A DNA stretch of 64,000 nucleotides, from positions 180,933 to 244,932 of the forward strand of contig NIVC01000925.1 in the NCBI GenBank assembly GCA_002269645.1, given 5' to 3'. Below the pieces are notes generated by a model. It had not been told where the DNA came from. It was given only the letters and a program-made list of their open reading frames with translations, and made no database searches. The translations under genes were made by a program, and so were the position numbers. Below are positions 12,400 through 64,000 of this stretch, piece after piece (position 1 is the stretch's first letter; each line of letters opens with the position of its first letter). The DNA comes from Macrostomum lignano (Eukaryota).

Positions 12400-15625
<3,226 letters not shown>

Positions 15626-16679
15626 TATGTCCAAATAAAATTCGGTTTAAAGCAAGATTCCGAGAAAACCTGCCGGAGTCACCCCGTGACCCGATTCTCA
15701 GTGGGGGGCACTAATTCCACCCGAACGCGCCATAGCCTCATAGACTGATTCCTGGTAGAGAAAAATCTAAAAAAGCAATTTCACCGGGCTGGCGGCAGCT
15801 TATTTTATAATAAGAGCAGAAAGTTTACTTTCGGATTACAGTCGTCAGAGACAGTCAGCGTGAGGTCACGGCAGTTGACCCAATCAAAAGTCAAGCCTCT
15901 TTTTATTTTAGTCCCTTCACTTCTCTTTCTCTCAGCTTTCTGCTGTCGTGTCTGTCACGGCTGCCCTCGCCGGATTATCTCCGCCCGGCCTCAAATCCGT
16001 CGCGATTCAGGATTTGAGCCAAGAGCAACCCTTAACTCCCCGCCGCTCCCGCGCCTTCCTTCCTTTCTCTCTCTCTCTCTCTCTCCCCTGTATGGTCTCC
16101 TTTGTTGTCTTTTCACAGAGTGATTATTTGTTCTTTCCTCCTCTCTATCTGCTTGTTTAAAGCCAGCCAGCCTTCGGCACGAATTCGCTTGTCTCTGTCT
16201 GCTTTATCGATTGGCGATTGAAGAGAGACAGCCTGTCGAATATGTTTTTGCCTTCTATTGACCTGTCAATCAAGCGTTTTAATAATATCGAGATTGCTTA
16301 TATTCTTTAGATAAGCAACGAATTGGAAATGATCTAATTCTCTGCGTTTGTTTGATATTTGTCACAGATCAATTGATTGACTGTATTATAATTATTAATG
16401 TAGTCGCTCGATTCACGCCCACGATGGCCAACACCCTTAAAGGCACAGTGAAGTTAGCACTGTTTGACGGTTTAGAAAGTCTGGGTTGAAGTACACCCTG
16501 TGTGAGCGTGTTCACGTGCTCAAGGTTCAGCGCAGGAGTCGGCAAACTGTTTTACTTTATCGGCTAGATAAAGGGATTTAAATCATTGTTGCTGAGAGAA
16601 GAAGAAACAGGGGATGAAAGATGACAAAAGAGATGAGAGGTAAGAGGCGAGATTGATGTGCGAGAGATACGATAAGAGA

Positions 16680-49593: not shown

Positions 49594-49890
49594 GTAATTT
49601 AAAAAACAATGTTTTACTAAATTCATTGCTTTTTTGAATTGTTGCAAGATCTGTCTGCTGCAAGGGTTGCAAGGGTTATCGTGCGGTTCAGGCCCATGAG
49701 GGCCAACCCCCAAGGCACAGAGTGCACACGCCTGACGATTAGGGTGTATGTGCTTGGGAGTTGATCCAGGGTGTCTGCGGTCCTTCTGTAATAATAATAA
49801 TATTAATAATAATAATAATTCGTCTGTACTGATGAATTTAAAAATCATCAACCTACAGTGCACATTGTAAAACTAACACATCACTTTAAG

Positions 49891-50058
49891 AGCGTCTCTC
49901 CATTGTTGTCAAGCCGGAAAATGTAAAGATGAGCACACCAGACTCCGAAGCCAGCTTCAAGTGTCGCATTTCTGGCGGCTCAAGCAGCCGTTCTTTACTG
50001 TGGTACAACAATGGCAGATTCGTTAGTCCTCGAGACAGCGAGGGACCGGCGATTCAAG
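49891..50058 (+). CDS. Host Ig gene exon: Ig4 N-half
   Basis: CTTTAAG|AGC..CAAG|GTAGGA, 168 nt. Translates RLSIVVKPENVKMSTPDSEASFKCRISGGSSSRSLLWYNNG. Confidence 0.8.
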
Positions 50059-50089
50059 GTAGGATTAAACAATATGTGAAAGCGTTGGG

Positions 50090-50250
50090 AAAAAAGGGTA
50101 GTGGCACCCTTTGAAAAGTCTGTGGAAGGGAATAGCGGCACCCTTTGAAAAGTCTGTGGAAGGAAATAGCGGCACCCTTTGATGAATCTGCGGAAGGAGA
50201 TAGTGGCACCCTTAAATGAATCTGTGGAAGGAGATAGCGGCACCCTTTGA
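50090..50250. repeat. ~34-bp minisatellite x5 (GGAAGGGAATAGCGGCACCCTTTGAAAAGTCTGT)
   Basis: Direct reading. Confidence 0.85.
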
Positions 50251-50330
50251 AGAGTCCAGTAAGAATTTGGGTGATACGCTCGTTAAAATCTACTTTACTA
50301 TTTTTTTCATTTTTACTATCATCATTTCAG

Positions 50331-50351
50331 ATGAAACTTCAAGTACCGGAT
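50331..50351 (+). CDS. Host Ig gene 21-nt microexon (DETSSTG)
   Basis: ATTTCAG|ATGAAACTTCAAGTACCGGAT|GTAAGT has strong canonical sites, phase 1-1, and preserves the frame. Confidence 0.65.
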
Positions 50352-50443
50352 GTAAGTAATTTTATTTTCAGGAGTTATTCATGATACTCATTTTTGTTAT
50401 TCATCTTCATCATCATACTGGATTCGTCTTGACAATTTTCCAG

Positions 50444-50590
50444 TGTCCACAATCAGGGTGCGTAAGCTGAACCCGTCAATACGCGGCATTTTCCAATGCA
50501 TCGCTAGCGACCCGGAGGCCGACATCTGGGAGAGCGCAAACGCTTTGCTCACCGTTCAAGGCGACACGCTGCAACGGCCGACTGAGCCAG
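50444..50590 (+). CDS. Host Ig gene exon: Ig4 C-half
   Basis: TTTTCCAG|TGT..CCAG|GTGAGC, 147 nt. Translates STIRVRKLNPSIRGIFQCIASDPEADIWESANALLTV. Confidence 0.85.
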
Positions 50591-50671
50591 GTGAGCACTC
50601 AATAGATTCCTGCCGAGGATATCTATTAGTTTTTCTCCCAAATTTGATTTGAAAAATGAAAATCTTTGCAG

Positions 50672-51076
50672 CAGTTCCAACACCAGCCCGACCACCGATT
50701 GACGAACCTGCTGGGGCTACCACTAATCCATCGACCACCGACAAAGAAATCGTTCAGTTCTTAAACAGCACAAAGAGTGTAACCTACAAACTATTGAAGC
50801 CGGGAGAAACTTTCCAACAGATCAAATGCGGCAGTCAGTTTGAGCCTCGAAGTAATTACGTGTTCACCTTCTATAAGGACAATCAGCTGATTAATGTTAC
50901 TCCTAGCAAAGGACCGATTCTGAATCCGTACATGCAATTCGAGAATATTCTTGGTCTGGTGAGTTCGACTAAATTCGGCGATGAAAAAGCCCGCTTCCAG
51001 GGTGTGTATAAGTGCCGAGTTACCCAAAAGGATACTGGCCGACTATTGTTTGTTCAGACTATCCATGCTGGATATG
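50672..51076 (+). CDS. Host Ig gene exon: Pro/Thr linker plus Ig5 (gene continues beyond, no stop)
   Basis: TTGCAG|CAG tandem acceptor, donor TATG|GTGAGT, 405 nt. Translates IKCGSQ..FTFYKDNQ..FQGVYKCRV. Confidence 0.8.
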
Positions 51077-51121
51077 GTGAGTGAGCGCTTATTTATATTG
51101 CTTATTTATTTACGTGTATAT

Positions 51122-51210
51122 CAGGGGTCGGCAAAGTCCGGCCAGCCAGGCTTCTCTATCCGGCCCTCGGGTCCTTTGAAACTTCACAATAGCAATCCGG
51201 CCGCTCAAGG
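51122..51210 (+). mobile_element. Left end of a hAT (Charlie/Buster-like) non-autonomous element
   Basis: CAGGGGTCGGCAAAGTCCGGCC..ATCCGGCCC resembles hAT-Charlie termini. The preceding 8 bp GTGTATAT has a central TA. No right end was found in the window. Confidence 0.45.
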
Positions 51211-51419
51211 TTTGTGTCTTTTCTCAGCTCTCCTCTCTAATCTCCCCTCTCTCCTTCTCCATTCTCTCGTCTCAATTGTATCTCCCCTCCCTTCCGATGC
51301 TAAATTAGAGCTTATAAAAGAGCATCATGCAATCAGGTACAAATATAATATCAGAAGGAACTTCCACTCATAGGCTTGTTAGCTTAAGAGTAACCTATAT
51401 ACAATAAGTAGTATATACC

Positions 51420-51632
51420 ATACAAAATACCCAGCAAACCATTCTCACCATTGCAAACAATTTAACCCTTTATCAGTGTGAAATGGCCTGTTTCCCTTCA
51501 TTTTCGCTCGTCTTCACTTCGCTCAACTCGCTTCGCTCATCCTCGCTTCATTTCGGTCAAACAGGCCATTTCACACTGATAAAGGGTTAAATTGTTTGCA
51601 ATGGTGAGAATGGTTTGCTGGGTATTTTGTAT
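51420..51632. repeat. Perfect 74-bp inverted repeat with a 65-nt pyrimidine-rich loop
   Basis: Arms at 51420-51493 and 51559-51632 are exact reverse complements. The loop contains repeated TTCGCTC. Confidence 0.95.
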
Positions 51633-51737
51633 CGTCAACGCTTCCAACTCTCTCCAACACACACAAACTTTCTAGAACCCGTCGCACGCGCCGCAGGCGC
51701 GAAGGGTCTTTTTCTGTTATAAAAAATAGAACAAAAA

Positions 51738-52148
51738 ATGACACACGTTACACATATGCAAAATCTGAACGAATTGCAGGTAGGAGATCCAATTGAATAC
51801 CGAGGTGAGGGACTTTTTGATTTGGTTGGAACAGCAGCAAATTTTGTTAAAGACAATATGGGGCTTATAGGACAAGCTGGCTCTGCAGCAGGCTCTATAA
51901 CAAATGCTGTAAAAGGAGGAATTGAAGCAGCTAGAGCGGCAGAAGAACTAAAGAAATTGAGAGATTTTAACGATACCCTCTCACAGATAAAAGCAATAAA
52001 AGATTTGAAATTAGCACAGGAAGCAACCCAAGCCGCACAACCAACAGAAACCCCCACGAAAAGCGCATCAATAAGTAATAAAGATATTCAGGATTTTAAT
52101 AAAATGTTAAATACTATTAAAGGTGGAAAAGGATTAAAGAAATTTTAA
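51738..52148 (+). CDS. Putative virion core/cement protein (136 aa) with GxG|L adenain-type sites
   Basis: YRGEG-LFDLVGTAANFVKDN amphipathic segment and C-terminal IKGGKG-LKKF; A-rich start context. Confidence 0.7.
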   Translation: MTHVTHMQNLNELQVGDPIEYRGEGLFDLVGTAANFVKDNMGLIGQAGSAAGSITNAVKGGIEAARAAEELKKLRDFNDTLSQIKAIKDLKLAQEATQAAQPTETPTKSASISNKDIQDFNKMLNTIKGGKGLKKF

Positions 52149-52158
52149 CAATATAAAA

Positions 52159-53154
52159 ATGGACTCAGTTAATGATGATGAAAACCGGTTATATTTTATA
52201 GGAGAAATTGTAGATACCTTAAATCTTGATGATAATAAGCAAACCCACACAATGTTAAAAAGATTGGATCGATTAGGTAAAAAGTTTGACTACGACATCG
52301 ATACATTTAAACTCGCAGCAAAATATGCGCAAGAAGGAAGGCCAATATCCTTTAAGAATCGCGGCAGAAATTATAGGTTAACCGACTCCGATGTGAAATT
52401 TTTAATGGAGACTCACACTAAAAAGGACGGCGGATTACTACCCATTCTACCGCTTCTTTTAGGACTTGGCGCAGCTGGAGCAGTCGGTTTAGCCGGAAAA
52501 AGAATTCATGATAATGTAAAACAGCTAGGAGAGTTAAGAGCGAAACAGGGGGGAATCTTGCCCCTTGCAGCTTTGCTCCCAATAATTTTTGCAGGAATTG
52601 GAGCAGCTGGAGGAGTTGCTGGCGGAGCAGCTGGAATTGCAAAAGCAGTAAATGACAAAAAAGCTGCGGACGAAAAAGCTAAAAGAGAGGCCGAATTTCA
52701 AAGACAGCAAATAACGCAGGACGCACAATTCAAACAGAAACTTATTGATACCATTAATAGTAGTTCAGCAACAGCAGAGCAAAAAAGAAATGCAGAAGCT
52801 AGGTTAGCAGCTAGAAAAGGGTTAATACTAAAAGGATCAAATCATGGCAATGGTTTACTTTTACAAGGAACAACCCAAGGAAGCGGAGTTGTAGCAGATA
52901 AACTACATGAATTTGGTCAAACTTTAGAAAAAACGGGTGAGAAAGCTAAAGGATTTTTTGACAATATTGGGGCTAATTTTAGGCCAGCAGTTCAGAAGAT
53001 TTTTACTAAATTAGGAAAAGATTTTAACATAATTGAAAAGCATGATGGAAGCGGATTATATCTCGAAATGAGACCAAAAGCAGGTTCAGGAATTTTCTTA
53101 AATTCAAACGTTATGGGCAATGGATTGCTGTTACCAAAAGCAGATCTCGAATAG
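52159..53154 (+). CDS. Adenovirus pX (mu)-like core/membrane-active polyprotein (331 aa)
   Basis: Contains KQGG-ILPLAALLPIIFAGIGAAGGVAGGAAGIAKAVNDKK and KKDGG-LLPILPLLLGLGAAG, which resemble the pX-like motif of Polintons, plus five GxG-hydrophobic repeats. Confidence 0.75.
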   Translation: MDSVNDDENRLYFIGEIVDTLNLDDNKQTHTMLKRLDRLGKKFDYDIDTFKLAAKYAQEGRPISFKNRGRNYRLTDSDVKFLMETHTKKDGGLLPILPLLLGLGAAGAVGLAGKRIHDNVKQLGELRAKQGGILPLAALLPIIFAGIGAAGGVAGGAAGIAKAVNDKKAADEKAKREAEFQRQQITQDAQFKQKLIDTINSSSATAEQKRNAEARLAARKGLILKGSNHGNGLLLQGTTQGSGVVADKLHEFGQTLEKTGEKAKGFFDNIGANFRPAVQKIFTKLGKDFNIIEKHDGSGLYLEMRPKAGSGIFLNSNVMGNGLLLPKADLE

Positions 53155-53237
53155 GCTCCTGGGGGAGGGTCTGGACACCAAAAACGCAAAATTAAAAAAT
53201 CAATAATTCAAACATTATATAAATTATATTCTATAAA

Positions 53238-56200
53238 ATGGAACAAAGATTGACCCCAGATCAGATTCGACAACTTCTTGCAAATGAGCGCCAACAGTTC
53301 AATCGATTACAAAGACAGATTGAACAAATTGAACAGCGCCAAAGACAACAACGCCGCCAAAGAGCAAGAGAAAGACAGAGAGAAAGGCAGAGAGAAAGAG
53401 AAATACAAGACCAACAAATAAATGCATTAGCAAATAATATAAGGGCAGAATATGAAATGAAGCGATTAATAGAAAAGGCTGAATATGAAAAAAGAATAGC
53501 AGAATTAGAAAAAAACCAAAAGAAACCCACACGTCGGAAACCTCGGAATAAATCGGATGAAAAACCATTAGATGAGTTTATTAGGGTTTATCGATTTGAA
53601 CCAATGCAGAATGTCCTAGATTTTATTGAAACCCAGCTTTCAAACGGATATGCTGTTGAAATTACTAATGCGAGGGTACAATATTTTTATAATAAAACCG
53701 GAGATGATCGTGAAGAGATTAATCAATACTTAGCAACATTTTATAATATAAGCCAATTTCAAGCTTGGTTTAAGCATTTGGTAGAAAATTACGACATGAA
53801 TTTAAGTGTGTTTTCTGGAAGACTTAAAATGACACCAAACGAAATTACACTTAAACACGAAAGGTCAAAGCAGGGTATGGGAACAAATGTCATGTGTGAA
53901 ATTGTAGAGTATAAAGATGAGTACTGTTACATACCTAGTGATGGAAATTGTTTCTACAAGTGTGTTCAGTTTATTTATGGTGATAAAGCCCCACGCAAAG
54001 ACGAATATGGTGCTTGGTTGTACGACTCAAGAACCCAAAGAGGTTTAATGACAAATTCAAGAATTGGAAGATTCAATGAATATTTTAATCTTAATATAGG
54101 GCTGTACAACACCAAAAATCGCGGCATTGAACCAAAGTCTCAAAGAGGGATTCACCACGATTGGTTATTAATAAATTATTTCCACACACCCGATTACCAC
54201 ATTGGGCATTATTGTCTTATATCAAATAAACAACGAGGAATCGCCCTCGAACGGATAAAAGACAATTATAAAGTTGTATATAAAAACCCAACGCTCGAAA
54301 ATGTTAAGGAGCTAAAAATGTTCAACACACCCACAAATCCCAATAAATCAAATGTATATATATTTGATTTTGAAACATATTTAAATTATAATCAACAAGC
54401 ATGTCCGTATGCGGTTGGTCTTTTAAACTATAACGACTTTTCTAATAAGTGTAATGAAACCCCAGAGACAATAAAGAAACTAACTAAGATCTTGATATCA
54501 GATCGCGGTTGTGATTTTCAAACAGATGGAGATAAGACCGATCGTACCGAAGGTTCGCAACCAAAGGTTGATTGTGTTAGAAAAATGTTTAAATACCTTG
54601 GTACAGTTAGGTCAAAAAAGATTGTTTTGATCGCGCATAACTCATCCCGCTTTGATTCATACATACCACTATTTTGTAATATAAAACCAATTAAAATTCT
54701 CAAAACCCCAAGAGGAATATTATCAATAACTTTTGTAAACGATTACGCGTCAAAAGAGGTTAGTGCATTTATAAACAAAGATAAGAAGAAGAATCATAAG
54801 GATTCGAAACAAACCATTACGATGCTTTGTTCATATCAACACGCATCAATGAGTTTAAAAAAGTTTTGCTCATCAATGACAATTAGAGAGGATTTGCGAA
54901 AGACCTCAATGGTTCACGACATTACCGAACACGACTATTTAGAGCGCATGGACGAATGGTATGAATATTTACAATTTGATCTTATTTCTTTATGCGCCTG
55001 TATTCATAAGTATAATGAAATAGCATATGAAATTGGAGGAATGACAATGTTCGATACTCTTACCTGTTCAAGTTTAACATTAAAATGTTGGTTTAAAGAT
55101 TTTGTTAGAGTTGAAGACAAAATGAAACAATATCTAAAGACAGAAGAAAAAACTAATTACATTAAAAAAGTTGAAGAAATAATATCTCCGTTGAAAATAG
55201 AGGATTATTTTGACTTAAGCAAACTTGAAAAAGCAAAATACCAAACACTATTAAGAAAAGAATTTTCAGTTCACTCTCATACCAATCCTTATATACGAAG
55301 GTTTATGCGGGACGCAGTCAAAGGAGGCAGGGTATTTGCACTAATAAATAAATATGAAAGCGACTGTTTTCAAACAATTGTAGACGTTGTAAAAGCCCAT
55401 TTAAAAACACCAACAAGCGACCCATGCGAGGTTATATCAACTTATCTCAAAAGCGATATGGAAGAAAAAAAGAAAATCGCAATTAAATTAAAAAACCAAT
55501 TGGGTACCGTATCAGATTGTTTAATGAATTTTGATGGAGTTTCGTTGTACCCATCTGCCATGTCTGATAAGGATAGTGAATATCCAAGAGCAGAAACAGC
55601 AAGAGTTTTTGATATAAGCGAGGAAAAAGATTTCTTGGCACAATTTAATTCACAAACCTTTCGACCAAAAACAGCGGTTTTAAAGATTATGTATGAGAAT
55701 CCTAACACCGTTTTTCTTCAACATCTCCCATCGAAAGATAAAGAGAAATTTTATAATCCGGAAACAAAAGCAAACGAAACAAAAACATTAAATAGGTTTA
55801 GAAACGGAAAAGTAATTGACACCTTATGTTCCGTAGATATACAAGAAATTGTAAGAATGGGTGGAAAAATATTAAAGATATATAGTGGAATTGTATATGA
55901 AAAAAATTACGATTTCTCTCCGTTTCAGAATTATATTACAAATCTTTTTGAAATGAGAAAAGTATTTAAAAAAGAAAATAACGAGGCAGGTTCTGAATTG
56001 GTAAAAACACTATTAAATTCATTATATGGCAAAACAGTTCAAAGAGACATTACTTTCACAACACATCTCTGGAATTTGCAAACATTAAAAACCGAATACG
56101 ATGACACAATCAAATCATATGAGAAAATATGTGACGATTTATATTATGTTGAAAAAAATAAAGACACGCAAGAATATGTAGATGAGGAAGAGGAAAGTCC

Positions 56201-56858
56201 TATAACAAGCCTTTGTCCAGCACAATTAGGAATATTTATCTTAGCTCATTCAAGAAGGATCATGAATAATTTTATTACCTCTATAGAGGGCTCAAAGACT
56301 CCAGAAATTTATTACGGCGATACAGATTCGTTATATATACATAAAAAACATTGGGACACATTAAATAAAAACGGGCATGTTGGAAATAACTTAAGTCAAG
56401 GAAAAAATGATTATGGAGAGGGTGGAATTATATTCGGTTATTTTATCGCTCCTAAAATTAAATATTGTCTTTTATTGAAAGACGATTTTATTATGGAAGA
56501 GAAAAAAACATTTAAAGGATGTGCAAACGATAAGATTAATTTTGCATCGTTTAAAACTTTATATGATGGACAGTCAATAAAAGTAAATAATAATGCTCCG
56601 TGGAAACGATCATTTGAAGGTGGTATAACAATTCCTCAAAGCGGATCAACAATATCAAAAACATATACCTCTACGATAAACACATTTAAAAGAGAAAAAC
56701 CGGATAAAAACGGAGTTATGAAACCATTCTTTAAAAACTATTTTGATGACAAACCACAGCATGAACATTCAATTGAATATTATAACAGTTTACTATTTGA
56801 CGTTGACTATAATTGTTTTGAGTTCGATATTGATGAATTAGCACTTGAAAAAAACTAA
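53238..56858 (+). CDS. polB: Protein-primed family B DNA polymerase (1206 aa), intact, with N-terminal region and OTU-like domain
   Basis: ExoI IFDFETY, ExoII AHNSSRFD, ExoIII YLQFD, KGGRV, motif A FDGVSLYPSAM, motif B KTLLNSLYGK and motif C YGDTDSLY. Confidence 0.96.
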   Translation: MEQRLTPDQIRQLLANERQQFNRLQRQIEQIEQRQRQQRRQRARERQRERQREREIQDQQINALANNIRAEYEMKRLIEKAEYEKRIAELEKNQKKPTRRKPRNKSDEKPLDEFIRVYRFEPMQNVLDFIETQLSNGYAVEITNARVQYFYNKTGDDREEINQYLATFYNISQFQAWFKHLVENYDMNLSVFSGRLKMTPNEITLKHERSKQGMGTNVMCEIVEYKDEYCYIPSDGNCFYKCVQFIYGDKAPRKDEYGAWLYDSRTQRGLMTNSRIGRFNEYFNLNIGLYNTKNRGIEPKSQRGIHHDWLLINYFHTPDYHIGHYCLISNKQRGIALERIKDNYKVVYKNPTLENVKELKMFNTPTNPNKSNVYIFDFETYLNYNQQACPYAVGLLNYNDFSNKCNETPETIKKLTKILISDRGCDFQTDGDKTDRTEGSQPKVDCVRKMFKYLGTVRSKKIVLIAHNSSRFDSYIPLFCNIKPIKILKTPRGILSITFVNDYASKEVSAFINKDKKKNHKDSKQTITMLCSYQHASMSLKKFCSSMTIREDLRKTSMVHDITEHDYLERMDEWYEYLQFDLISLCACIHKYNEIAYEIGGMTMFDTLTCSSLTLKCWFKDFVRVEDKMKQYLKTEEKTNYIKKVEEIISPLKIEDYFDLSKLEKAKYQTLLRKEFSVHSHTNPYIRRFMRDAVKGGRVFALINKYESDCFQTIVDVVKAHLKTPTSDPCEVISTYLKSDMEEKKKIAIKLKNQLGTVSDCLMNFDGVSLYPSAMSDKDSEYPRAETARVFDISEEKDFLAQFNSQTFRPKTAVLKIMYENPNTVFLQHLPSKDKEKFYNPETKANETKTLNRFRNGKVIDTLCSVDIQEIVRMGGKILKIYSGIVYEKNYDFSPFQNYITNLFEMRKVFKKENNEAGSELVKTLLNSLYGKTVQRDITFTTHLWNLQTLKTEYDDTIKSYEKICDDLYYVEKNKDTQEYVDEEEESPITSLCPAQLGIFILAHSRRIMNNFITSIEGSKTPEIYYGDTDSLYIHKKHWDTLNKNGHVGNNLSQGKNDYGEGGIIFGYFIAPKIKYCLLLKDDFIMEEKKTFKGCANDKINFASFKTLYDGQSIKVNNNAPWKRSFEGGITIPQSGSTISKTYTSTINTFKREKPDKNGVMKPFFKNYFDDKPQHEHSIEYYNSLLFDVDYNCFEFDIDELALEKN

Positions 56859-57187
56859 AGCATGTAATTGTTTAAGCATAATATCCATTTCGATTTCATA
56901 TAATATTGAAGCCAATTTTCCTCGCAGTCAGGGTAACTTAAACAATCCTTTATTTTTTTCCTAAGTTTTTTTATTTTTCTAACCAATCTATCTATTTCAA
57001 TTTCAATTACTATTTCAGCATAATTAATTGCAGATTTAATAAAACGTTTTCTTTTATCTATCTCATATCGGATGGGAAACATATCGTCCCCATACTCATG
57101 ATATTTCTGAGATATAATTATATTTATTTTTTTATTAATATCATTAAGTTCACGCTCTTTAGTGATAAGGATTTTTATTGTCTCCAT
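56855..57187 (-). CDS. Hypothetical basic protein (110 aa)
   Basis: TATAAGAAAATG start context; the stop overlaps the pPolB stop region (convergent). Confidence 0.6.
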   Translation of the reverse strand: METIKILITKERELNDINKKINIIISQKYHEYGDDMFPIRYEIDKRKRFIKSAINYAEIVIEIEIDRLVRKIKKLRKKIKDCLSYPDCEENWLQYYMKSKWILCLNNYML

Positions 57188-57202
57188 TTTCTTATAAAAA
57201 AT

Positions 57203-57535
57203 TTAGTCTTCGTCGTCATCCTCCCAAACAGCCGCCAATTTTACAGTCCTATCACTCTTTTTATTATTTGTTTGTTTTAGTTTAAATTGCAATCCACCCT
57301 CGTTGCAGTATTTCATAACAAACGCTTTAGGTTTATTAATAACTAAAACAGGAAAATTTTTAACATCATCTCCGCTTAGACATAAAATTTTTTGCCCATC
57401 TAATTGTAAAAATATTGATTGAAGCCCAATAAATTTAACCTGTCTCAAACATATAATATTATATTCTTTATTCTCCAACATATTGGGTGTGAGATAATTA
57501 ATCACATTAGAATCGGTTTTGAACCAGCTCTCCAT
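57203..57535 (-). CDS. Hypothetical protein (~110 aa, likely start MESWF) with acidic tail
   Basis: AAAAATG context at 57535; the upstream in-frame extension reads as poly-Phe from an A-run. Confidence 0.6.
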   Translation of the reverse strand: MESWFKTDSNVINYLTPNMLENKEYNIICLRQVKFIGLQSIFLQLDGQKILCLSGDDVKNFPVLVINKPKAFVMKYCNEGGLQFKLKQTNNKKSDRTVKLAAVWEDDDED

Positions 57536-57560
57536 TTTTAATCTAAAAAAATAAAAAAAA

Positions 57561-57851
57561 ATGAAAGACATTTATGTTTGTAATAAATGTAATGTGACTA
57601 TGCACAGAGGGCAAACAGCAAACGGAGATATATATCATATGTGTTATTCATGTTCTAAAATATATCAATTTGAAAAAACAAAAAAGATTGAAAACTCATA
57701 TTACTATTTTAAAAACACAATTTTAAGAAATCTTACAAGAGACATTTCTGATCCAATTTTAATTCCCGGAAATAATGTTTATTTATATAATAACTTTTTC
57801 CATTTAAATAAAGGAAAGGGATTAAGTTCGAAAGACTCGAAAGGATTTTAA
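57561..57851 (+). CDS. Small zinc-ribbon protein (96 aa)
   Basis: CNKC-x17-CYSC near the N-terminus; A-rich start. Confidence 0.6.
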   Translation: MKDIYVCNKCNVTMHRGQTANGDIYHMCYSCSKIYQFEKTKKIENSYYYFKNTILRNLTRDISDPILIPGNNVYLYNNFFHLNKGKGLSSKDSKGF

Positions 57852-58039
57852 TTTTAGTTGGATATTATTTCAATTTTCTTATTCGAGAGAATACAAAGTT
57901 TATAAGGATAGGTAACATACCTAACGAAATGTTATTGAAAAAGTCATTGGAATTTTTATGTATTGATAAAAAATTTAAACCTAGGATCAGAAGAGAGTTA
58001 CCACTTTGGGAAGAATATATAACATATGCATTAAATAAA

Positions 58040-58692
58040 TTAAACAACATTAAGTTCTACAGCACTTCCTGACCGTGGGCTTTGTGCCCCAGTAGCAATA
58101 GTTTCAGGTTCGTAAATACCTAATGTTTCTATAGGTGGAGCTTTGGGTTTGTCCAAACGTAATTCTTTTAATTCCATATCGGTAAAAGTTTCAACATCTA
58201 AAATTCTATTTCTATCTTTTAAATATTTTTCATATAATTCAACCGCGGTTGATAATTCATGAATCGTTATCTCTCCGTCATCCAATATTTTTTGCACATA
58301 TAAATATAATTGATTTTTATATTGGCAACATCTCTTAATGATTTATATTTTTCCTTTCTTTTTTTAAGATATAATTTAATTGCTAAAAGTATTGATAAGT
58401 TCCTGATCAATTCAAAACCTGATATTGAGCCAATTGAAATACCTAAAAATAATTGAGATAAATTAAGAGTTGGAATAGATTGTAAAATACCTAAAACGAT
58501 TACACATAACATTGATAAGCTTCCAAATCCAATATTGAAAAAGTCCATATTTCTTATATGGTTTGAAACTCTTCTTACTTTTTTAGCATATAAATCATAA
58601 TCATAGTTAATACGATCAACATTACTTAACATCTGACCTTTACGTTGGTTGAACCGGTCGCGTTCCCATTTATCTGCTTCAGATACCGACAT
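58040..58692 (-). pseudogene. Membrane protein with two hydrophobic helices, apparently split by a frameshift at ~58295
   Basis: The 141-aa ORF (..KINYIY) continues in the adjacent frame as VQKILDDGEITIHELS. Removing one AT from TATATGTG fuses them. Confidence 0.55.
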
Positions 58693-58704
58693 TCTCGTCT
58701 ATTT

Positions 58705-59004
58705 TTAATAGCACCAAAATGAATTCCCCGCGCTCTTTGGGATTTGTCCCGAGCTCAATAGGTATTGTATTGGAGTGATTCTTTCTTTTTTCTCCCATTT
58801 AAATCCTATTTTCCAAAACTCTTGAAGTATAATATGATTTTTTAATAACTTAATTAATTCTTGAAGCTTCTTATTATCCTGAACATTTACAGTACTAAAT
58901 AAAAATTTGGTATGAGATTTGAATGTTTTTATATTTGATTCTTGTTTAGGAATAGGAATAATAACATTATTTTGCCGCATCGATGGAGTTCTACTAAAAG
59001 CCAT
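58705..59004 (-). CDS. Hypothetical protein (99 aa, MAFSRTPS..)
   Basis: TATATAAAATG start at 59004, inside the track's 248-aa ORF, preceded by a duplicated AT-rich 15-mer. Confidence 0.55.
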   Translation of the reverse strand: MAFSRTPSMRQNNVIIPIPKQESNIKTFKSHTKFLFSTVNVQDNKKLQELIKLLKNHIILQEFWKIGFKWEKKERITPIQYLLSSGQIPKSAGNSFWCY

Positions 59005-59035
59005 TTTATATATAAATATTTTATATATAAATATT

Positions 59036-61081
59036 TTATATTTGAGTAGGAGGTTTTTCCAAATAAGCAGTAGAGGGAAAAACATAACCAAACGACGTAC
59101 TACCACATACAACGCACCACGAATAAAATGTGCAGCATCCGCTCCACCAGTTCGAGCACCAAAACCCATAAGGGTTCCAGATTTATCTAAAGTTCCCCAA
59201 GTTCCACTATCATATGTGAAAACGTTCTGTCCAATGAGGGTAAAAGAATCACCAGCAACATTGTATGACTGTAATCGGTACCAAACCCTTTGATTTAAAA
59301 TATTAACTTCAAATAAATGCCAATTGCCGTTATCAATATTAGCATAGGCTACAGTTTGATCTGCGCCAGTATTAACATCCCGCGCGGCTTGATCCGTCTG
59401 ATTTTTTATTACTCCAAACAACTCCAAACCTATCAGTCCACTCACTTGCAAAAACTATCAGCCCGGCGTCGGTTGATAATCCAGTTCCAAATTCCGATGT
59501 TGGACGTTGGTGACAGTATGCATAAAACCAAACCGCATCTGCACCATCTCCTGTAGAATTAGCAACTCGGAAAAAGAAAGACGCAGATATATTTTGAAAA
59601 TGTGTGAAATTGAATTGTAAAGCACCACTTACTCCAGGAGTTTCACGAGTAATTCTAGCGCCGTTTTGATAATCGATATAAGAAGCATCGCTAATTAAAG
59701 AACCGACTGGATATATATCTCCGGCGGTTGTTGGATTTTGATATCCAGACCAATTGCAAATTACTGGTTCGAACAAGGCCGCATCAATAGCAGGTATTCC
59801 ATCCAATTTATTTTTATCGCTTCCAGACATTCTACCATTTGATGTTGGAGTAGCTAGCTGATCTACGTACGCTCGCGGAACTGCAGAAAGTATTTGAGTT
59901 GGCCAATTAAGATCTTGAATTTCAACACGGTGTTCAAATAATTGTATTTGACGAACCTCGATAGGTTGTGTACCGGTACCACCAGTTGGGAAGAATACGC
60001 TATAATATTTCCAAAAATTAGTCGTTAAATTAGATAGAGCAAATGATGTTGCTTGAACTGGTGATCCCGACGTAGTTAATGTCGTCCATGAATCGGTAGC
60101 AACATTTTTTGCGCGAACCGACCACCCCGAGGGTATCTCAATTGTTTCACTGCCTGTAATTCTTAATTCAAATATTCTTCTATTATAACCTAAAAATTCA
60201 AATTGAATTTCCATATTGGTTGTGGTTCCGGTATTTGGTGACCATTGTGTCGCAAGGCTTCCATCTCCAACTCGAAAAGCTGTGTTGCCATTTTCAGATG
60301 CTGTAAGAACAACATCAGGATTTGAAGTATTTGATGTAAGCGGCGTGGTAAAAATATCGGCGTCGGTTGCATTAGCTCGCTCGTTTACTTGGCCTAGAGT
60401 TATCGAGTCTGCGTTCTCTGTTCCAAATAATAAATTTGTTAATTTAAAATTATTCATATTAATATTTCCACTACGAGTGGCAACTTGATTATCGACATAG
60501 TTCTTATCAACCACTGAATCACTAGTTGTAATTGAAACATTTATAATTCGGTTGTTGCTCATATCTAGGTTTCCGGTTGCGGTGGTTTGAACATAACGTG
60601 AATCAGAATCAGTTCGAGAATAAGAATCAGTTACATCTCTTTTTAAATTTAATCCATTATCAACTTCGGTTTTGGTATAAGAATCGGCTACGTTCCGTTT
60701 CAAATTTAATGAATTATCAACTTCGGTTTTGGTATAAGAATCGGCTGTATTGCGTTTTAAATTTAATGAATTATCAACTTCGGTTTTGGTATAGGAATCG
60801 GCTGTATTGCGTTTTAAATTTAATGAATTATCAACTTCGGTTTTGGTATAGGAATCGGCTACGTTCCGTTTCAGATTTAGTGAATCATCTATTTGAGTTT
60901 TGGTATAGGAATCTGCAACATTTCTTTTTAAATTTAATTTATTATCAACTTCAGTTTTTTTATAACCTTCATCCTCATTAATATATCGATTATCTCCAAA
61001 TGTAACACTTATTCCACCAGATGTGCCACCACCACCACTACTTGTTGTTCCGTTCCATGAGGGTGTTCCAGAAAATAACAT
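59036..61081 (-). CDS. Fibre/receptor-binding protein: 19-aa repeats, stalk motifs, F5/8C (discoidin)-like and L-lectin-like domains; frameshifted near 59405
   Basis: Six YTKTEVDNSLNLKRNxADS repeats (57 bp), GNLDMSNNRIINV..KNYVD stalk motifs, ASENGNTAFRVGDG..QW..PSGWSV..YY discoidin pattern and ATPTSNGRMSGSDKNKLDGI. The lectin pattern GADAVWF continues in the +1 frame as NIDNGNWH..GFGARTGG..HFIR. Confidence 0.7.
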
Positions 61082-61118
61082 TTTTTACTGTCTATTTTAT
61101 AGAGTCTAAAATCGAACC

Positions 61119-61559
61119 TTAGGTTCGCATGCTTTGCATGATATTCTTAAATACTTCGGGGGTTTCCTTCGAGTTATTAATTTTATATAAAAAATACAAC
61201 GCCGCTTGCCCGCAATAACTTTTATCAAATGTTTGAAATTGTTCGTGATGATCTCCACATAAACGATTTTTAGTATGATTAAATTTGTCTTTTATTTCCT
61301 GTAACGGAGGAAGCGCGTATGAATCAAAAAAATAAACAAGTTTTGGTTTTGAATAAACTGCTGACCAATGAACACCGTTTTCTTTTGTTGTTTCAATATT
61401 AACAATGAAAGATCCATATTGTGGTAAGTCTTTGATCTCATCTCGCATAACACATCTGAATGGTTTTATTTTTAACTGCCTCGCCCAATTTGTTAATTCG
61501 ATATTGCTTGTTGTGTCCGTTCCATATCTTTGTTTAAAATCATCCCACGTCATGGTCAT
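61119..61559 (-). CDS. Adenain-like cysteine protease (146 aa), intact
   Basis: Catalytic H (NGVHW), D (YFFDSY), oxyanion Q and C (QTFDKSYCG). Confidence 0.9.
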   Translation of the reverse strand: MTMTWDDFKQRYGTDTTSNIELTNWARQLKIKPFRCVMRDEIKDLPQYGSFIVNIETTKENGVHWSAVYSKPKLVYFFDSYALPPLQEIKDKFNHTKNRLCGDHHEQFQTFDKSYCGQAALYFLYKINNSKETPEVFKNIMQSMRT

Positions 61560-61560
61560 T

Positions 61561-61770
61561 TTATGTTCCTGAAAAACTCTTGGTTTTAGTTAGTTTCGTA
61601 GGTGTGGGTTTTAACAATTCCTTTCTTATTTTATCAGCTTGTAACTGCCTTAATTTTGCTAGTTCTAGTTCGTAATTATCTTCAGCTTTTTTAACTTTTT
61701 CTGATTGTTTTTTTATTAAATTATTATTATTATCGTGCTTTGCACGCGAACATGTTGTTCGATTACCCAT
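61561..61770 (-). CDS. Small basic coiled-coil protein (69 aa) with putative N-myristoylation signal
   Basis: MGNRTTCS start; tightly packed between the penton and protease genes. Confidence 0.6.
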   Translation of the reverse strand: MGNRTTCSRAKHDNNNNLIKKQSEKVKKAEDNYELELAKLRQLQADKIRKELLKPTPTKLTKTKSFSGT

Positions 61771-61780
61771 TTTTACAGTA

Positions 61781-62488
61781 CTAAACCTGTTTTATACGTA
61801 AAATTATTGTTATTGACTGCCCACCAAAACTTATTAATCTATCGCTTTCATCTACAATCCTAATATAAATTGATTGAACGCTATATTGATTTAAAGGATA
61901 ATATATTGGGGTTTGGGGTGCAACAATCATTTTCTCTCCAATTGGAACAGCAAGAAATGGGATTGAATAAATAATTCCACGTTGAACCAAAACTCCGTTA
62001 TCGTCTGTTATATAACCACCGTTTGAAATGTCGGTTGTTATATTAATTGTATTTACTCCACCCTCTATATTTCCAACTGTATCACCGGTGCTTGATGTGG
62101 TAACTATTCGGGAATTAAATCCAAGTATGGTTCTGAGTGAATTTGCAATTGTGAAATCAACCTGATATCCGGATCCTAGTGATAGTGTGAATCTGCCAGA
62201 CGGTAAATCAACACCTATAACAATTGCTCCTGCTACCCAATCACCATTAGTTGTTAATTCTCCTTCTATATAAGCATTCAAATCAGTATAGCTATACGCT
62301 CCTGGGTTAACGCTAAATGTTGTCCAATTGGCTCCGGAATCTTTAGAATATCTAAATTGATTATTTGTTGCATTAATTAATTGAGGCATGTTGAAAACCG
62401 AAAATAGTATTAAACCTATTTGATAACTTAGGCTTTGATCAAGTTGTAATGGATCGCGCAATTGAATCCGTTGCTCGCTGGTTGTCAT
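61781..62488 (-). CDS. Minor capsid protein (penton, single jelly roll), 235 aa, intact
   Basis: INATNNQFRY..VNPGAYSYTDLN, VNTINITTDI..GGY, GEKMIVAP..IYYPL and IYIRIVDESDRLISFGGQSITIILRIK match the Polinton penton pattern. Confidence 0.85.
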   Translation of the reverse strand: MTTSEQRIQLRDPLQLDQSLSYQIGLILFSVFNMPQLINATNNQFRYSKDSGANWTTFSVNPGAYSYTDLNAYIEGELTTNGDWVAGAIVIGVDLPSGRFTLSLGSGYQVDFTIANSLRTILGFNSRIVTTSSTGDTVGNIEGGVNTINITTDISNGGYITDDNGVLVQRGIIYSIPFLAVPIGEKMIVAPQTPIYYPLNQYSVQSIYIRIVDESDRLISFGGQSITIILRIKQV

Positions 62489-62562
62489 TATAAACTACCA
62501 GCTAATCGAACTAAATTAGTTCGATCTACCAATTGTTTTATAGTATTTAAATTTGTAGTCAT
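62488..62562 (-). CDS. 24-aa micro-ORF translationally coupled (TAATG) to the penton
   Basis: CACTATAAAAATG start, MTTNLNTIKQLVDRTNLVRLAGSL*; the stop overlaps the penton ATG. Confidence 0.45.
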   Translation of the reverse strand: MTTNLNTIKQLVDRTNLVRLAGSL

Positions 62563-62652
62563 TTTTATAGTGGGAAATTAATCGGACGAAGTCCGCGTTC
62601 CGAAGGTACGCGTGCTATGCACGATCCTCTTCTTCCTCATTATCTTCTTTTA

Positions 62653-63413
62653 TCAAATTTTTAAAATTCTATGTTTCCTTTCTAACCTCGGATTGATATA
62701 AATATGTTTGTATTGGCTATCATCCCAAATTTTTTTACACATACTTTTAAATGGTTTTGCATCCAACCCAGGATTAAATCTCGCGTGAATATTTTGTAGA
62801 TCATAGTTATCTAAATCAAACATTACACAACAGCTAGCATTCTTTTTTATAATCGATTCTAATTCTCTAAAGGATTGAGTAAGATAAAAAGCTCCAATTC
62901 CATCTCCTCTACCACTAACAAAAATTTCCTTTTGCAATTCTTGATCACCGTCATTAATACAATCATCAAAAATAATTAGTGTTTTATCATGTTTTGGAAT
63001 TTGATCATAGGCTAATCGGGTTGATACTCTAACAGTTGGGGCTCGATCGCGACGAAGTCCGCGACCCTTCGGGGCGATCGGTGATATTTTCTGGCTGTTG
63101 TGCCATTGTTTTACATAAATCCTCAATGTCTGCTAGATTAAATCGCGGTTCGTCATCATCCTCATATTGCTCATATGCTCTTAACATTCTAAACAAGACA
63201 TCTTTTTTTAATTTGTTTTTTAATCCATGTTAAGAAATTCATAATATTTTATTCTAGGTTTATTAGTATAAATTATTAAATTATTATAGTCTAACATTCC
63301 ATCTGTTGTTAATAAATCGTAAACAAAGTGTGTTTTTCCTTTACCTGATCCTCGATTACTAAACAAAGAAAAGGATCATTTGGAAATATTTTATTGTGTT
63401 TTGCCTTTACCAT
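62653..63413 (-). pseudogene. A32/FtsK-HerA-like genome packaging ATPase with three frame disruptions
   Basis: Reconstructed MVKAKH..LCLVI(G)GSGKGKT (Walker A), LIIFDD (Walker B), GR..IGAFYLTQSF and IKKN. Breaks at about 63352, 63230 and 63080-63038. Confidence 0.85.
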
Positions 63414-63428
63414 TTTTAAAGAAATAAT

Positions 63429-64000
63429 TTAAATAGGCGCGACGGTCGGAGACCTGCACCGCTTACAGCGGGCGACGTAAAGTGGCGCGTCCCGAACAAT
63501 CGTGCCATCAGCTTTAGCAATTGACATATATTCCTCTAGAAACAATACGTGGGCGTCAAGTGCCTGATTACCGGTTTTATTAATCTCTAACATATAATTA
63601 AGTCCAATATTGGCTACGTTTTCTTTCTGTGCCGTTAGATCATAAACAACCACTGGATGAATGTTTAGAAACTCTGTGGGTGTGTACTGAGGGACGGCAT
63701 ACGCTTCATTTTTGGCATAATCTTGATAATATTTTATAAAATCATTAACATTATTATTTGCTATTTAGATTAAAAGGGGGTCTTTCCGATAATATTGATC
63801 ATCAACTGCAGGCGGATATTCTGACATTAAACTCGTTAATGCTGCAGCCGCATTGTCTGTTGCGGTGGCTGCTTGTTCTGCTATGGCACCGGATGAAGCC
63901 AATATAAATCCCCATTTGCTCTTTTACTCCTTCTATTTGTTATCTTAAACCAAACAAAAATATATCTCACCCGACGTTTTGATGTCAGTATTTGCCACTG
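63429..64000 (-). pseudogene. Major capsid protein (double jelly roll), C-terminal part, several frameshifts or a stop; start beyond the window
   Basis: Fragments RVRYIFVWFKITNRR, DDQYY..FNL, YYQDYAK..PQYTPTEFLNIHPVVVYDLTAQKE and LDAHVLFLEE fit the Polinton MCP C-terminal pattern; it lies next to the ATPase and penton. Confidence 0.7.

Follow-up and report, generated by a model that had tools for sequence, protein, structure and literature searches.

The left part of an integrated, probably young Polinton in the genome of the flatworm Macrostomum lignano

The stretch analysed here, called the window, comprises 64,000 bp of the Macrostomum lignano genome (assembly GCA_002269645.1, contig NIVC01000925.1, positions 180,933 to 244,932 of the forward strand). 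While its first 50 kb consist of tandem repeats, a dense array of genes with a G+C content of about 33% starts at 51738, and the left part of an integrated Polinton, about 12.6 kb long, lies within the window at 51407-64000. On the plus strand the element carries open reading frames (ORFs) of 136 aa and 331 aa and the gene of the polymerase pPolB, and on the minus strand genes for a fibre-like protein, a protease, a penton, a packaging ATPase and the C-terminus of the major capsid protein (MCP), both sets converging on a cluster of small ORFs at 56.9-59.0 kb. This layout agrees with an initial annotation made from the sequence alone. The G+C content of 0.33 in the element compares to about 0.43 outside, with the drop at about 51737 and not at 51407, and no second occurrence of the element DNA was found elsewhere in the window. 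Altogether, the preferred interpretation of the locus, with a probability of about 0.8, is a Polinton (polintovirus) that is integrated inside an intron and belongs to an M. lignano family that is young and present in multiple copies. The features used for recognizing a Polinton or Maverick were pPolB, an rve integrase, terminal inverted repeats (TIRs) of 100-1500 bp, a target-site duplication of 5-8 bp, an AGTAGT-type end, MCP, penton, ATPase and protease.

The polymerase pPolB (53238-56858, plus strand, 1206 aa) matches PF03175 with an E of 2e-18 and phrog_1907 with an E of 1.5e-19. It keeps the motifs Exo I-III, Pol A-C and KxY, with Cys and His motifs upstream of them, and the motifs are conserved across 19 aligned rows, save for truncated or aberrant ones. 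For polinton polymerases the domain order terminal protein (TP)-vOTU-Exo-Palm is described (PMC11161782), and the upstream Cys and His motifs appear to fit this vOTU domain, a label based on the motifs together with that description. No Pfam match was obtained for an OTU domain in pPolB, and the family scan gave no match to an HNH or VSR family, which some pPolB2 carry as an insert.

The closest match to pPolB is the M. lignano protein BOX15_Mlig030240g1 (P0001), which is identical in 978 of 987 aa (99%), originates from a 60,361-bp M. lignano contig and represents a 90% cluster of 10 member sequences. Since the two polymerases are almost identical and the cluster comprises several members, the family is considered to be young. 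The nearest relative outside the host (P0002) showed an identity of 50%, and all further relatives 50% or less. At an E of 1e-20 or better only 22 of 5418 candidates were retained in a search limited by its word filter, with a single M. lignano cluster among them, which suggests that this pPolB belongs to a lineage apart from the common Polintons of M. lignano. The only named relatives outside the host are two polymerases of Lottia gigantea (LOTGIDRAFT_155884 and LOTGIDRAFT_157165), which share 48% identity over 399 aa of the core and 31% in the N-terminal part, where the vOTU motifs are located. In a tree they formed one weakly supported clade with the pPolB of the window (SH-aLRT 83); this tree was obtained by a quick method, contained no named reference Polintons, carried a long-branch warning and was not used for classification. 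With respect to the pPolB1 and pPolB2 classes of Jeong et al., Lottia is named in the legend of a pPolB2 figure, but a Lottia accession looked up in the table did not occur there. Furthermore, a tight clade of related pPolBs with 28-30% identity (P0012-P0016 and P0018-P0021) was observed on contigs of 45-241 kb; six of them were aligned, and in these the Pol B motif is altered. This clade could be a Polinton family of another host or a larger virus.

The penton, a minor capsid protein (61781-62561, minus strand), comprises an open body of 235 aa at 61781-62488 and an N-terminal part in another frame. Based on an alignment of nine rows, AlphaFold2 (AF2) predicted its fold with a pLDDT of 81.5, and the top matches in Foldseek were the mavirus penton (E 1.3e-8), the adenovirus penton base and Sputnik, while for the relative P0027 the Atlas gives viral clusters. 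The protein is a single-jelly-roll penton, though its N-terminus is out of frame. The initial annotation had regarded this gene as free of lesions, which does not hold: seven of the eight relatives have about 26-31 extra N-terminal residues, and in weak pieces found by tblastn (E 16-95) their start resembles the other-frame sequence, which begins with an ATG at 62561 in the usual start context of the element. A scan of bacterial and archaeal genomes with the penton alignment gave two loci among 490 stretches, both with matches of 29 aa only, which were judged spurious.

For the capsid, the last 570 bp of the window (feature at 63429-64000, minus strand) match the C-terminus of proteins of 460-500 aa. 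The best full-length relative is 56% identical, the match covering its residues 315-486; only about 170 of about 490 residues lie inside the window. This piece itself gave no Pfam match, while three of the six relatives scanned pass the cut-off of the double-jelly-roll family PF21738. The double-jelly-roll capsid is assigned transitively via the relatives, for a gene that is both broken and partial in the window. An exhaustive search for capsid relatives gave 11, of which P0035 and P0039 were left out as apparent repeat artefacts and P0040 was not used. In a word-based homologue search of a 111-aa capsid piece against longer proteins 0 of 67 candidates passed, and the MCP profile found no match among the PDB sequences.

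A putative ATPase of the A32/FtsK packaging type is present in four pieces (62653-63412, minus strand) with Walker A and B in order. Its last piece matched Pox_A32 with an E of 0.011, which is below the cut-off, and a terminase phrog with an E of 0.0034; no match was obtained against the PDB. The adenain-type cysteine protease (61119-61559, minus strand, 146 aa) is open and carries His, Asp, Gln and Cys in the order of adenain. Together with an Atlas feature score of 0.97 and clusters with Peptidase_C5 in 13-62% of their members, this order identifies a maturation protease of the adenain/Ulp1 type. No Pfam, PHROG, NCBIfam or PDB sequence match was found for it, and a single-sequence AlphaFold model (pLDDT 35) was discarded.

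The fibre-like gene (59120-61081, minus strand, with an uncertain 3' end) contains six 19-aa repeats similar to the shafts of phage tail fibres (tandem repeat of 57 bp x 6.1). In the PDB it matches the L-shaped tail fibre 8hqz (E 1e-6), and its repeat region, but only this region, matches 29 phage records. An F5_F8_type_C (discoidin) domain is weak (E 0.017), and a carbohydrate-binding match of the C-terminal region in the PDB reaches only an E of 0.54. For the C-terminal 336 aa there was no match in phages or plasmids and only weak matches in the PDB; from the motif we take this region to be lectin-like, and its head domains are regarded as tentative.

On the core side of the element, the 331-aa ORF (52159-53154, plus strand) contains two hydrophobic pX-like motifs and matches Adeno_PX with an E of 0.01 for the whole ORF. 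A piece of 107 aa reaches 7e-4, but neither match passes the curated cut-off. This ORF probably encodes a virion core protein or a membrane-active precursor. The 136-aa ORF (51738-52148, plus strand), which has a Gly/Ala-rich amphipathic segment and no significant family match, is possibly another core protein. The identities of the ATPase, the pX-like protein and the fibre are less firm than those of pPolB, penton, capsid and protease. The description of these genes as a near-complete virion module is confirmed for the gene content but not for the integrity, with capsid, ATPase, penton and fibre broken and the capsid cut by the end of the window.

Polintons typically end in an AG-rich motif of the AGTAGT type. 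Such a candidate left terminus is present at 51407-51412 (plus strand), beside the gene array, and is preceded at 51401-51406 by ACAATA, which on the left side, the only one in the window, is a candidate for one copy of a target-site duplication of 6 bp; both had been correctly noted in the initial annotation. The hexamer occurs 11 times on the plus strand of the 64 kb and alone is not beyond chance. The copy at 51407 gains weight because the only inverted repeat of its kind in the window starts at 51417. This subterminal inverted repeat (51417-51635), not mentioned before, consists of two 77-bp arms (51417-51493 and 51559-51635) with one mismatch and a pyrimidine-rich 65-nt loop with short repeats. 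It lies 4 bp inside AGTAGT and is the sole short-range inverted repeat in the whole window with exact arms of at least 20 bp. As single-stranded DNA, 51395-51737 folds with -101.7 kcal/mol (z -20.8), a value reached by none of 100 shuffles. The hairpin is most likely part of a replication origin within the TIR; a recent local inversion would be a plain alternative for its origin. The loop (51494-51558) is almost entirely pyrimidine and repeats a short GCTC-containing unit, which to us is presumably reminiscent of the Rep-binding repeats of parvoviruses. A further inverted repeat of 7 bp at 51396-51418 spans the proposed junction and may reflect chance or target preference.

Upstream of the element, 49290-51078 (plus strand) comprises a host gene with several open Ig-like exons (I-set and V-set matches), and the element apparently interrupts this gene in the intron that follows. 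An exon ORF at 49422-49637 matches I-set (E 4e-4), and the last exon before the element (50673-51078, plus strand, Ig_2 with an E of 0.059) shows an open frame, an AG acceptor and a GT donor. Because this exon ends at 51078 with the donor, the element is placed apparently 328 bp into an intron, a status that presumes a next exon beyond the window. A dispersed short repeat occurs twice in the window, at 51122-51273 and inverted at 17897-18021 (80% over 132 bp), and its start at about 51122 presumably resembles the end of a hAT-type transposon. As a marker of the junction this flank repeat (51146-51273, second copy 17897-18021) was rejected, as it ends short of the junction and does not fix it.

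In ORF, family and motif scans no integrase-like motif was found in the window, 51407-64000 included, the right part of the element being outside the window. Likewise, the left end has no inverted partner inside the 64 kb, and the right end is located outside. The element could also be an integrase-less MELD or Polinton-like virus (PLV) that was captured once or inserted by the integrase of another element. Neither the 10.8 kb that follow the pPolB start nor the 1.8 kb before it contain an integrase, and in many tabulated M. lignano copies the integrase is found at a distance of about 10.1-10.5 kb on the downstream side or of about 1.5 kb on the upstream side (PMC10748475). The divergence of the polymerase, with its few matches, points in the same direction, as do MELD maps with fibre and lectin genes and the integrase-less MELD viruses described from Hydra and a spider (PMC8502044). 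However, in other tabulated copies the distance to a downstream integrase is 11-15 kb, a position that here would be outside the window (PMC10748475), and the integrase-less MELD viruses, as far as PMC8502044 presents them, carry no OTU. Compared to this, the element of the window shows an AGTAGT-type end, a cluster of several members and an intact vOTU, and a virus without integrase is very unlikely.

Ten frame breaks were mapped: near 57830 in a small ORF, 58324 in a membrane-type protein, 59418 in the fibre, 62493 in the penton, 63066, 63222 and 63351 in the ATPase, and 63762, 63773 and 63890 in the capsid. The codon model used for mapping was trained on the three plus-strand ORFs, and an extra break at 58044, which appeared only under a laxer penalty, was dropped. 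According to this model, there is no isolated nonsense codon and frame changes account for all stops. From left to right, the breaks increase from 0 in 5019 coding bp to 3 in 4176 and 7 in 1439 (0 to 4.9 per kb, Kolmogorov-Smirnov p=0.0012), and none of the ten falls within the first 47% of the coding sequence. In agreement with the initial annotation, pPolB and the protease are without lesions and show open frames with their catalytic motifs. Since the pX-like virion genes and the protease are intact, the damage does not simply follow virion function.

A density of indels that rises with distance from the unique flank, in combination with the lack of nonsense codons, would be the pattern of a poorly polished long-read consensus. 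The Mlig_3_7 assembly is based on PacBio and Canu and is described as difficult because of repeats (PMC5730564). Judged from the assembled sequence and not from raw reads, the breaks are somewhat more probably indel errors of the long-read assembly inside a repeat, while real decay is also quite possible. The copy as written could not, by its reading frames, make particles alone.

If the breaks are real, the element would be of the same class but belong to a sub-lineage that no longer forms particles. It would either spread within cells in the manner of a self-synthesizing transposon or use the capsids of relatives that are intact. All ten breaks are located to the right of pPolB, nine of them in genes of the minus strand, while pPolB is whole, and PMC10748475 describes Polinton ORFs that were fragmented by nonsense and frameshift changes. 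On the other hand, open frames are present in the protease, in the penton body of 235 aa and in the two ORFs of the pX side, isolated nonsense codons are missing, and the break density tracks position and not function. A sub-lineage of this kind is considered rather unlikely. A dead single copy in neutral decay since its insertion would explain the many breaks, the intronic position and the shortened sister polymerase. Neutral decay should, however, be even, and an even decay of the element is unlikely because the breaks concentrate towards the end of the window; in addition, the arms of the hairpin differ at only 1 of 77 positions, leaving the dead copy as a quite unlikely explanation. A chimeric assembly, in which the DNA of a free virus or symbiont was joined to host sequence, would agree with the increase of breaks away from the junction and with the difference in G+C content. 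This explanation is extremely improbable in view of the 99% identical polymerase annotated on another M. lignano contig of 60,361 bp and of a junction located at a motif that resembles a terminus and is accompanied by a hairpin.

Several observations weigh against the preferred reading of an integrated Polinton of a young, multi-copy family. The sister polymerase P0001 stops early, at 988 aa, before Pol C. As the codon model was trained on the plus-strand ORFs, their zero breaks are no independent control and merely reflect open frames. A run of at least five bases is found no more than 15 nt away from only four of the ten breaks, compared to 20% of random positions, which is a weak difference. 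Finally, integrase, right TIR and target duplication would be located outside the window, so that strict membership in the Polintons is incomplete. The initial annotation had proposed a recently active lineage from the absence of lesions in pPolB, protease and penton. This argument loses strength, since the penton does contain a lesion and the assembled sequence shows breaks in five genes of the virion side, whereas recent activity itself is plausible by the 99% identical sister polymerase and the 10-member cluster. More generally, frame breaks of long-read assemblies in repeats can pass for decay, and a broken gene can be overlooked if it contains an internal ATG in frame.

By analogy with the family, the element would excise, and its linear DNA would be copied from the ends by its own polymerase. 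Priming would be performed by an N-terminal terminal-protein domain, which is a predicted one, released by a cut of the vOTU. The A32-type ATPase would pack the DNA into a double-jelly-roll shell with pentons, whose vertex fibres may bind glycans on the next cell, and the adenain-type protease would mature the pX-like core proteins. A retroviral-type integrase, expected beyond base 64000, would then insert the element with a short duplication. The model of excision and TIRs is credited to Kapitonov and co-workers in a figure legend of 10.64898/2026.07.28.741278.

The remaining ORFs are small. Two at 56855-57571 (minus strand), one of 110 aa and one of 122 aa, which would be 110 aa if the second ATG is the start, belong to no family, and an ORF at 57561-58072 (plus strand) has two CxxC pairs, which may bind zinc according to the motif. 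The membrane-type protein at 58040-58692 (minus strand) contains hydrophobic segments and has no family match; it may resemble a common membrane protein of Polintons. It is accompanied by an ORF of about 99 aa at 58705-59004 (minus strand), recognized from the ORF list and from its AT-rich start context. Between penton and protease, a basic 69-aa ORF without family match (61561-61770, minus strand) begins with Met-Gly and a nearby Cys, a motif by which it is possibly a lipid-anchored entry or core protein. The AT-rich start context with an A-run directly before the ATG is common to most ORFs of the element, and its hexamer is about three times denser there (29 in 12.6 kb) than in the host part (41 in 51.4 kb), which is partly expected from the A+T content.

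Short G+C-rich palindromic islands occur between and inside genes (51687-51701, 54541-54559, 61111-61129, 62583-62612, about 63030-63080 and about 63430-63490). One of them is located at the break near 63066 in the ATPase, and another at a C-terminal extension of the capsid that is absent from the relatives. In a strict shuffle test short G+C-rich intergenic hairpins were not enriched (1 observed, 0.2 in 30 shuffles), and an Rfam scan of 51000-64000 gave 0 matches. The host part shows a very high load of micro- and minisatellites at 1-50256, including a 3.2-kb TATC array at 12404-15628; Tandem Repeats Finder (TRF) gave 74 rows for the window. At 38576-44167 a higher-order array of about 49% G+C is composed of 88-bp unit blocks (91-95% matches) and spacers of about 360 bp.

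As it stands, the locus is one more Polinton in a genome known to hold many, and its description is annotation rather than new biology. It would gain weight if intact sister copies exist, as infectious particles of animal Polintons are argued mostly from sequence, according to PMC8502044. With a hairpin inside the end of a pPolB element and a fibre similar to those of phages, it offers details on the start of replication and on the attachment to host cells that can be tested. A wider, unlikely possibility is a new clade of fibre-bearing, particle-forming polintoviruses of marine invertebrates (flatworm, limpet, environmental relatives), still active in laboratory M. lignano. Its vOTU-pPolB would be divergent and not belong to the pPolB1 families catalogued so far, and its long subterminal hairpin would be the origin of replication. 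If this was true, natural Polinton virions could be sought in a transgenesis-ready animal that is described as a tractable model (PMC5730564), and the function of a hairpin in protein-primed replication could be studied there.

Compared to known systems, a virophage of the Lavidaviridae type was rejected: pPolB has the full Exo I-III, which for the most part is lacking in the pPolB of mavirus according to PMC11161782, the MCP profile finds no solved capsid and the relatives carry PF21738. A closer likeness at the left end is given by virophages and PLVs of the protist Halocafeteria, in which palindromes lie within the TIR beside the target duplication and are proposed to prime or aid replication (10.64898/2026.07.28.741278). 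In the subtype pictured there these palindromes comprise 52 nt, and they occur preferentially with replication genes other than pPolB, whereas the element of the window resides in an animal, has a full pPolB and carries arms of 77 bp with a 65-nt loop, 10 bp in from the proposed end. No report of a TIR palindrome in an animal pPolB Polinton was found in the literature looked through, in a search that was not exhaustive. With the pPolB2 Polintons of oomycetes the element shares an attachment gene resembling phage fibres (10.1101/2023.08.22.554363). In that source the oomycete fibres are of the beta-helix type and the pPolB2 bears HNH, while the fibre of the window has a repeat shaft like the T5-type and SPO1-type fibres.

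Two M. lignano assemblies are of relevance for the comparison with flatworm Polintons, NIVC01 and LFJF01, the latter presumably being the earlier one. A survey of 73 flatworm genomes tabulated 748 integrase-linked pPolB1 in eight of them and no pPolB2, with 78 integrase-linked Polinton polymerases for NIVC01 and 175 rows for LFJF01 (PMC10748475). A pPolB length of 1206 or 1207 is found in 0 of the 78 and 0 of the 175, a matching by length that is indirect. One row of LFJF01 with a length of 1211 equals the stop-to-stop frame of the window, but has its integrase match 1.3-2.1 kb upstream, where the window locus has none. Because the survey is described as requiring a 650-aa match to nematode queries and a linked integrase, a divergent family could escape it, and the family of the window may be absent from its tables. 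No description of this family was found in the literature searched, which did not include subscription journals and Repbase.

Adintoviruses, as described in PMC8502044, share with the element the animal host, OTU-PolB, adenain, hexon and penton and, less firmly, an FtsK-type ATPase and a pX-like motif, with the OTU N-terminal to PolB recognized in the window at the level of motifs only. Pfam gave no match for PLA2, gasdermin or cupiennin, and neither the Alpha (PLA2X) nor the Beta (GasderminX, cupiennin) accessory set was found beyond the weak pX-like match. The element differs from adintoviruses in that no integrase lies in 51407-64000 and that a fibre is named in PMC8502044 for MELD viruses of non-animal hosts; four polymerase motifs of the window did not occur in the supplement text of that source. 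The closest agreement is with the Polintons/Mavericks (Polintoviricetes), by a pPolB with an OTU-type domain, MCP, penton, a putative packaging ATPase and adenain-type protease. Active Polintons are routinely found in insects according to 10.1101/2025.02.07.637071. The initial annotation had made its class depend on matches to pPolB, penton and adenain, and all three were found. The assignment as Polinton/adintovirus-like (Preplasmiviricota) is right, and the element is a genuine, probably young Polinton of a known kind.

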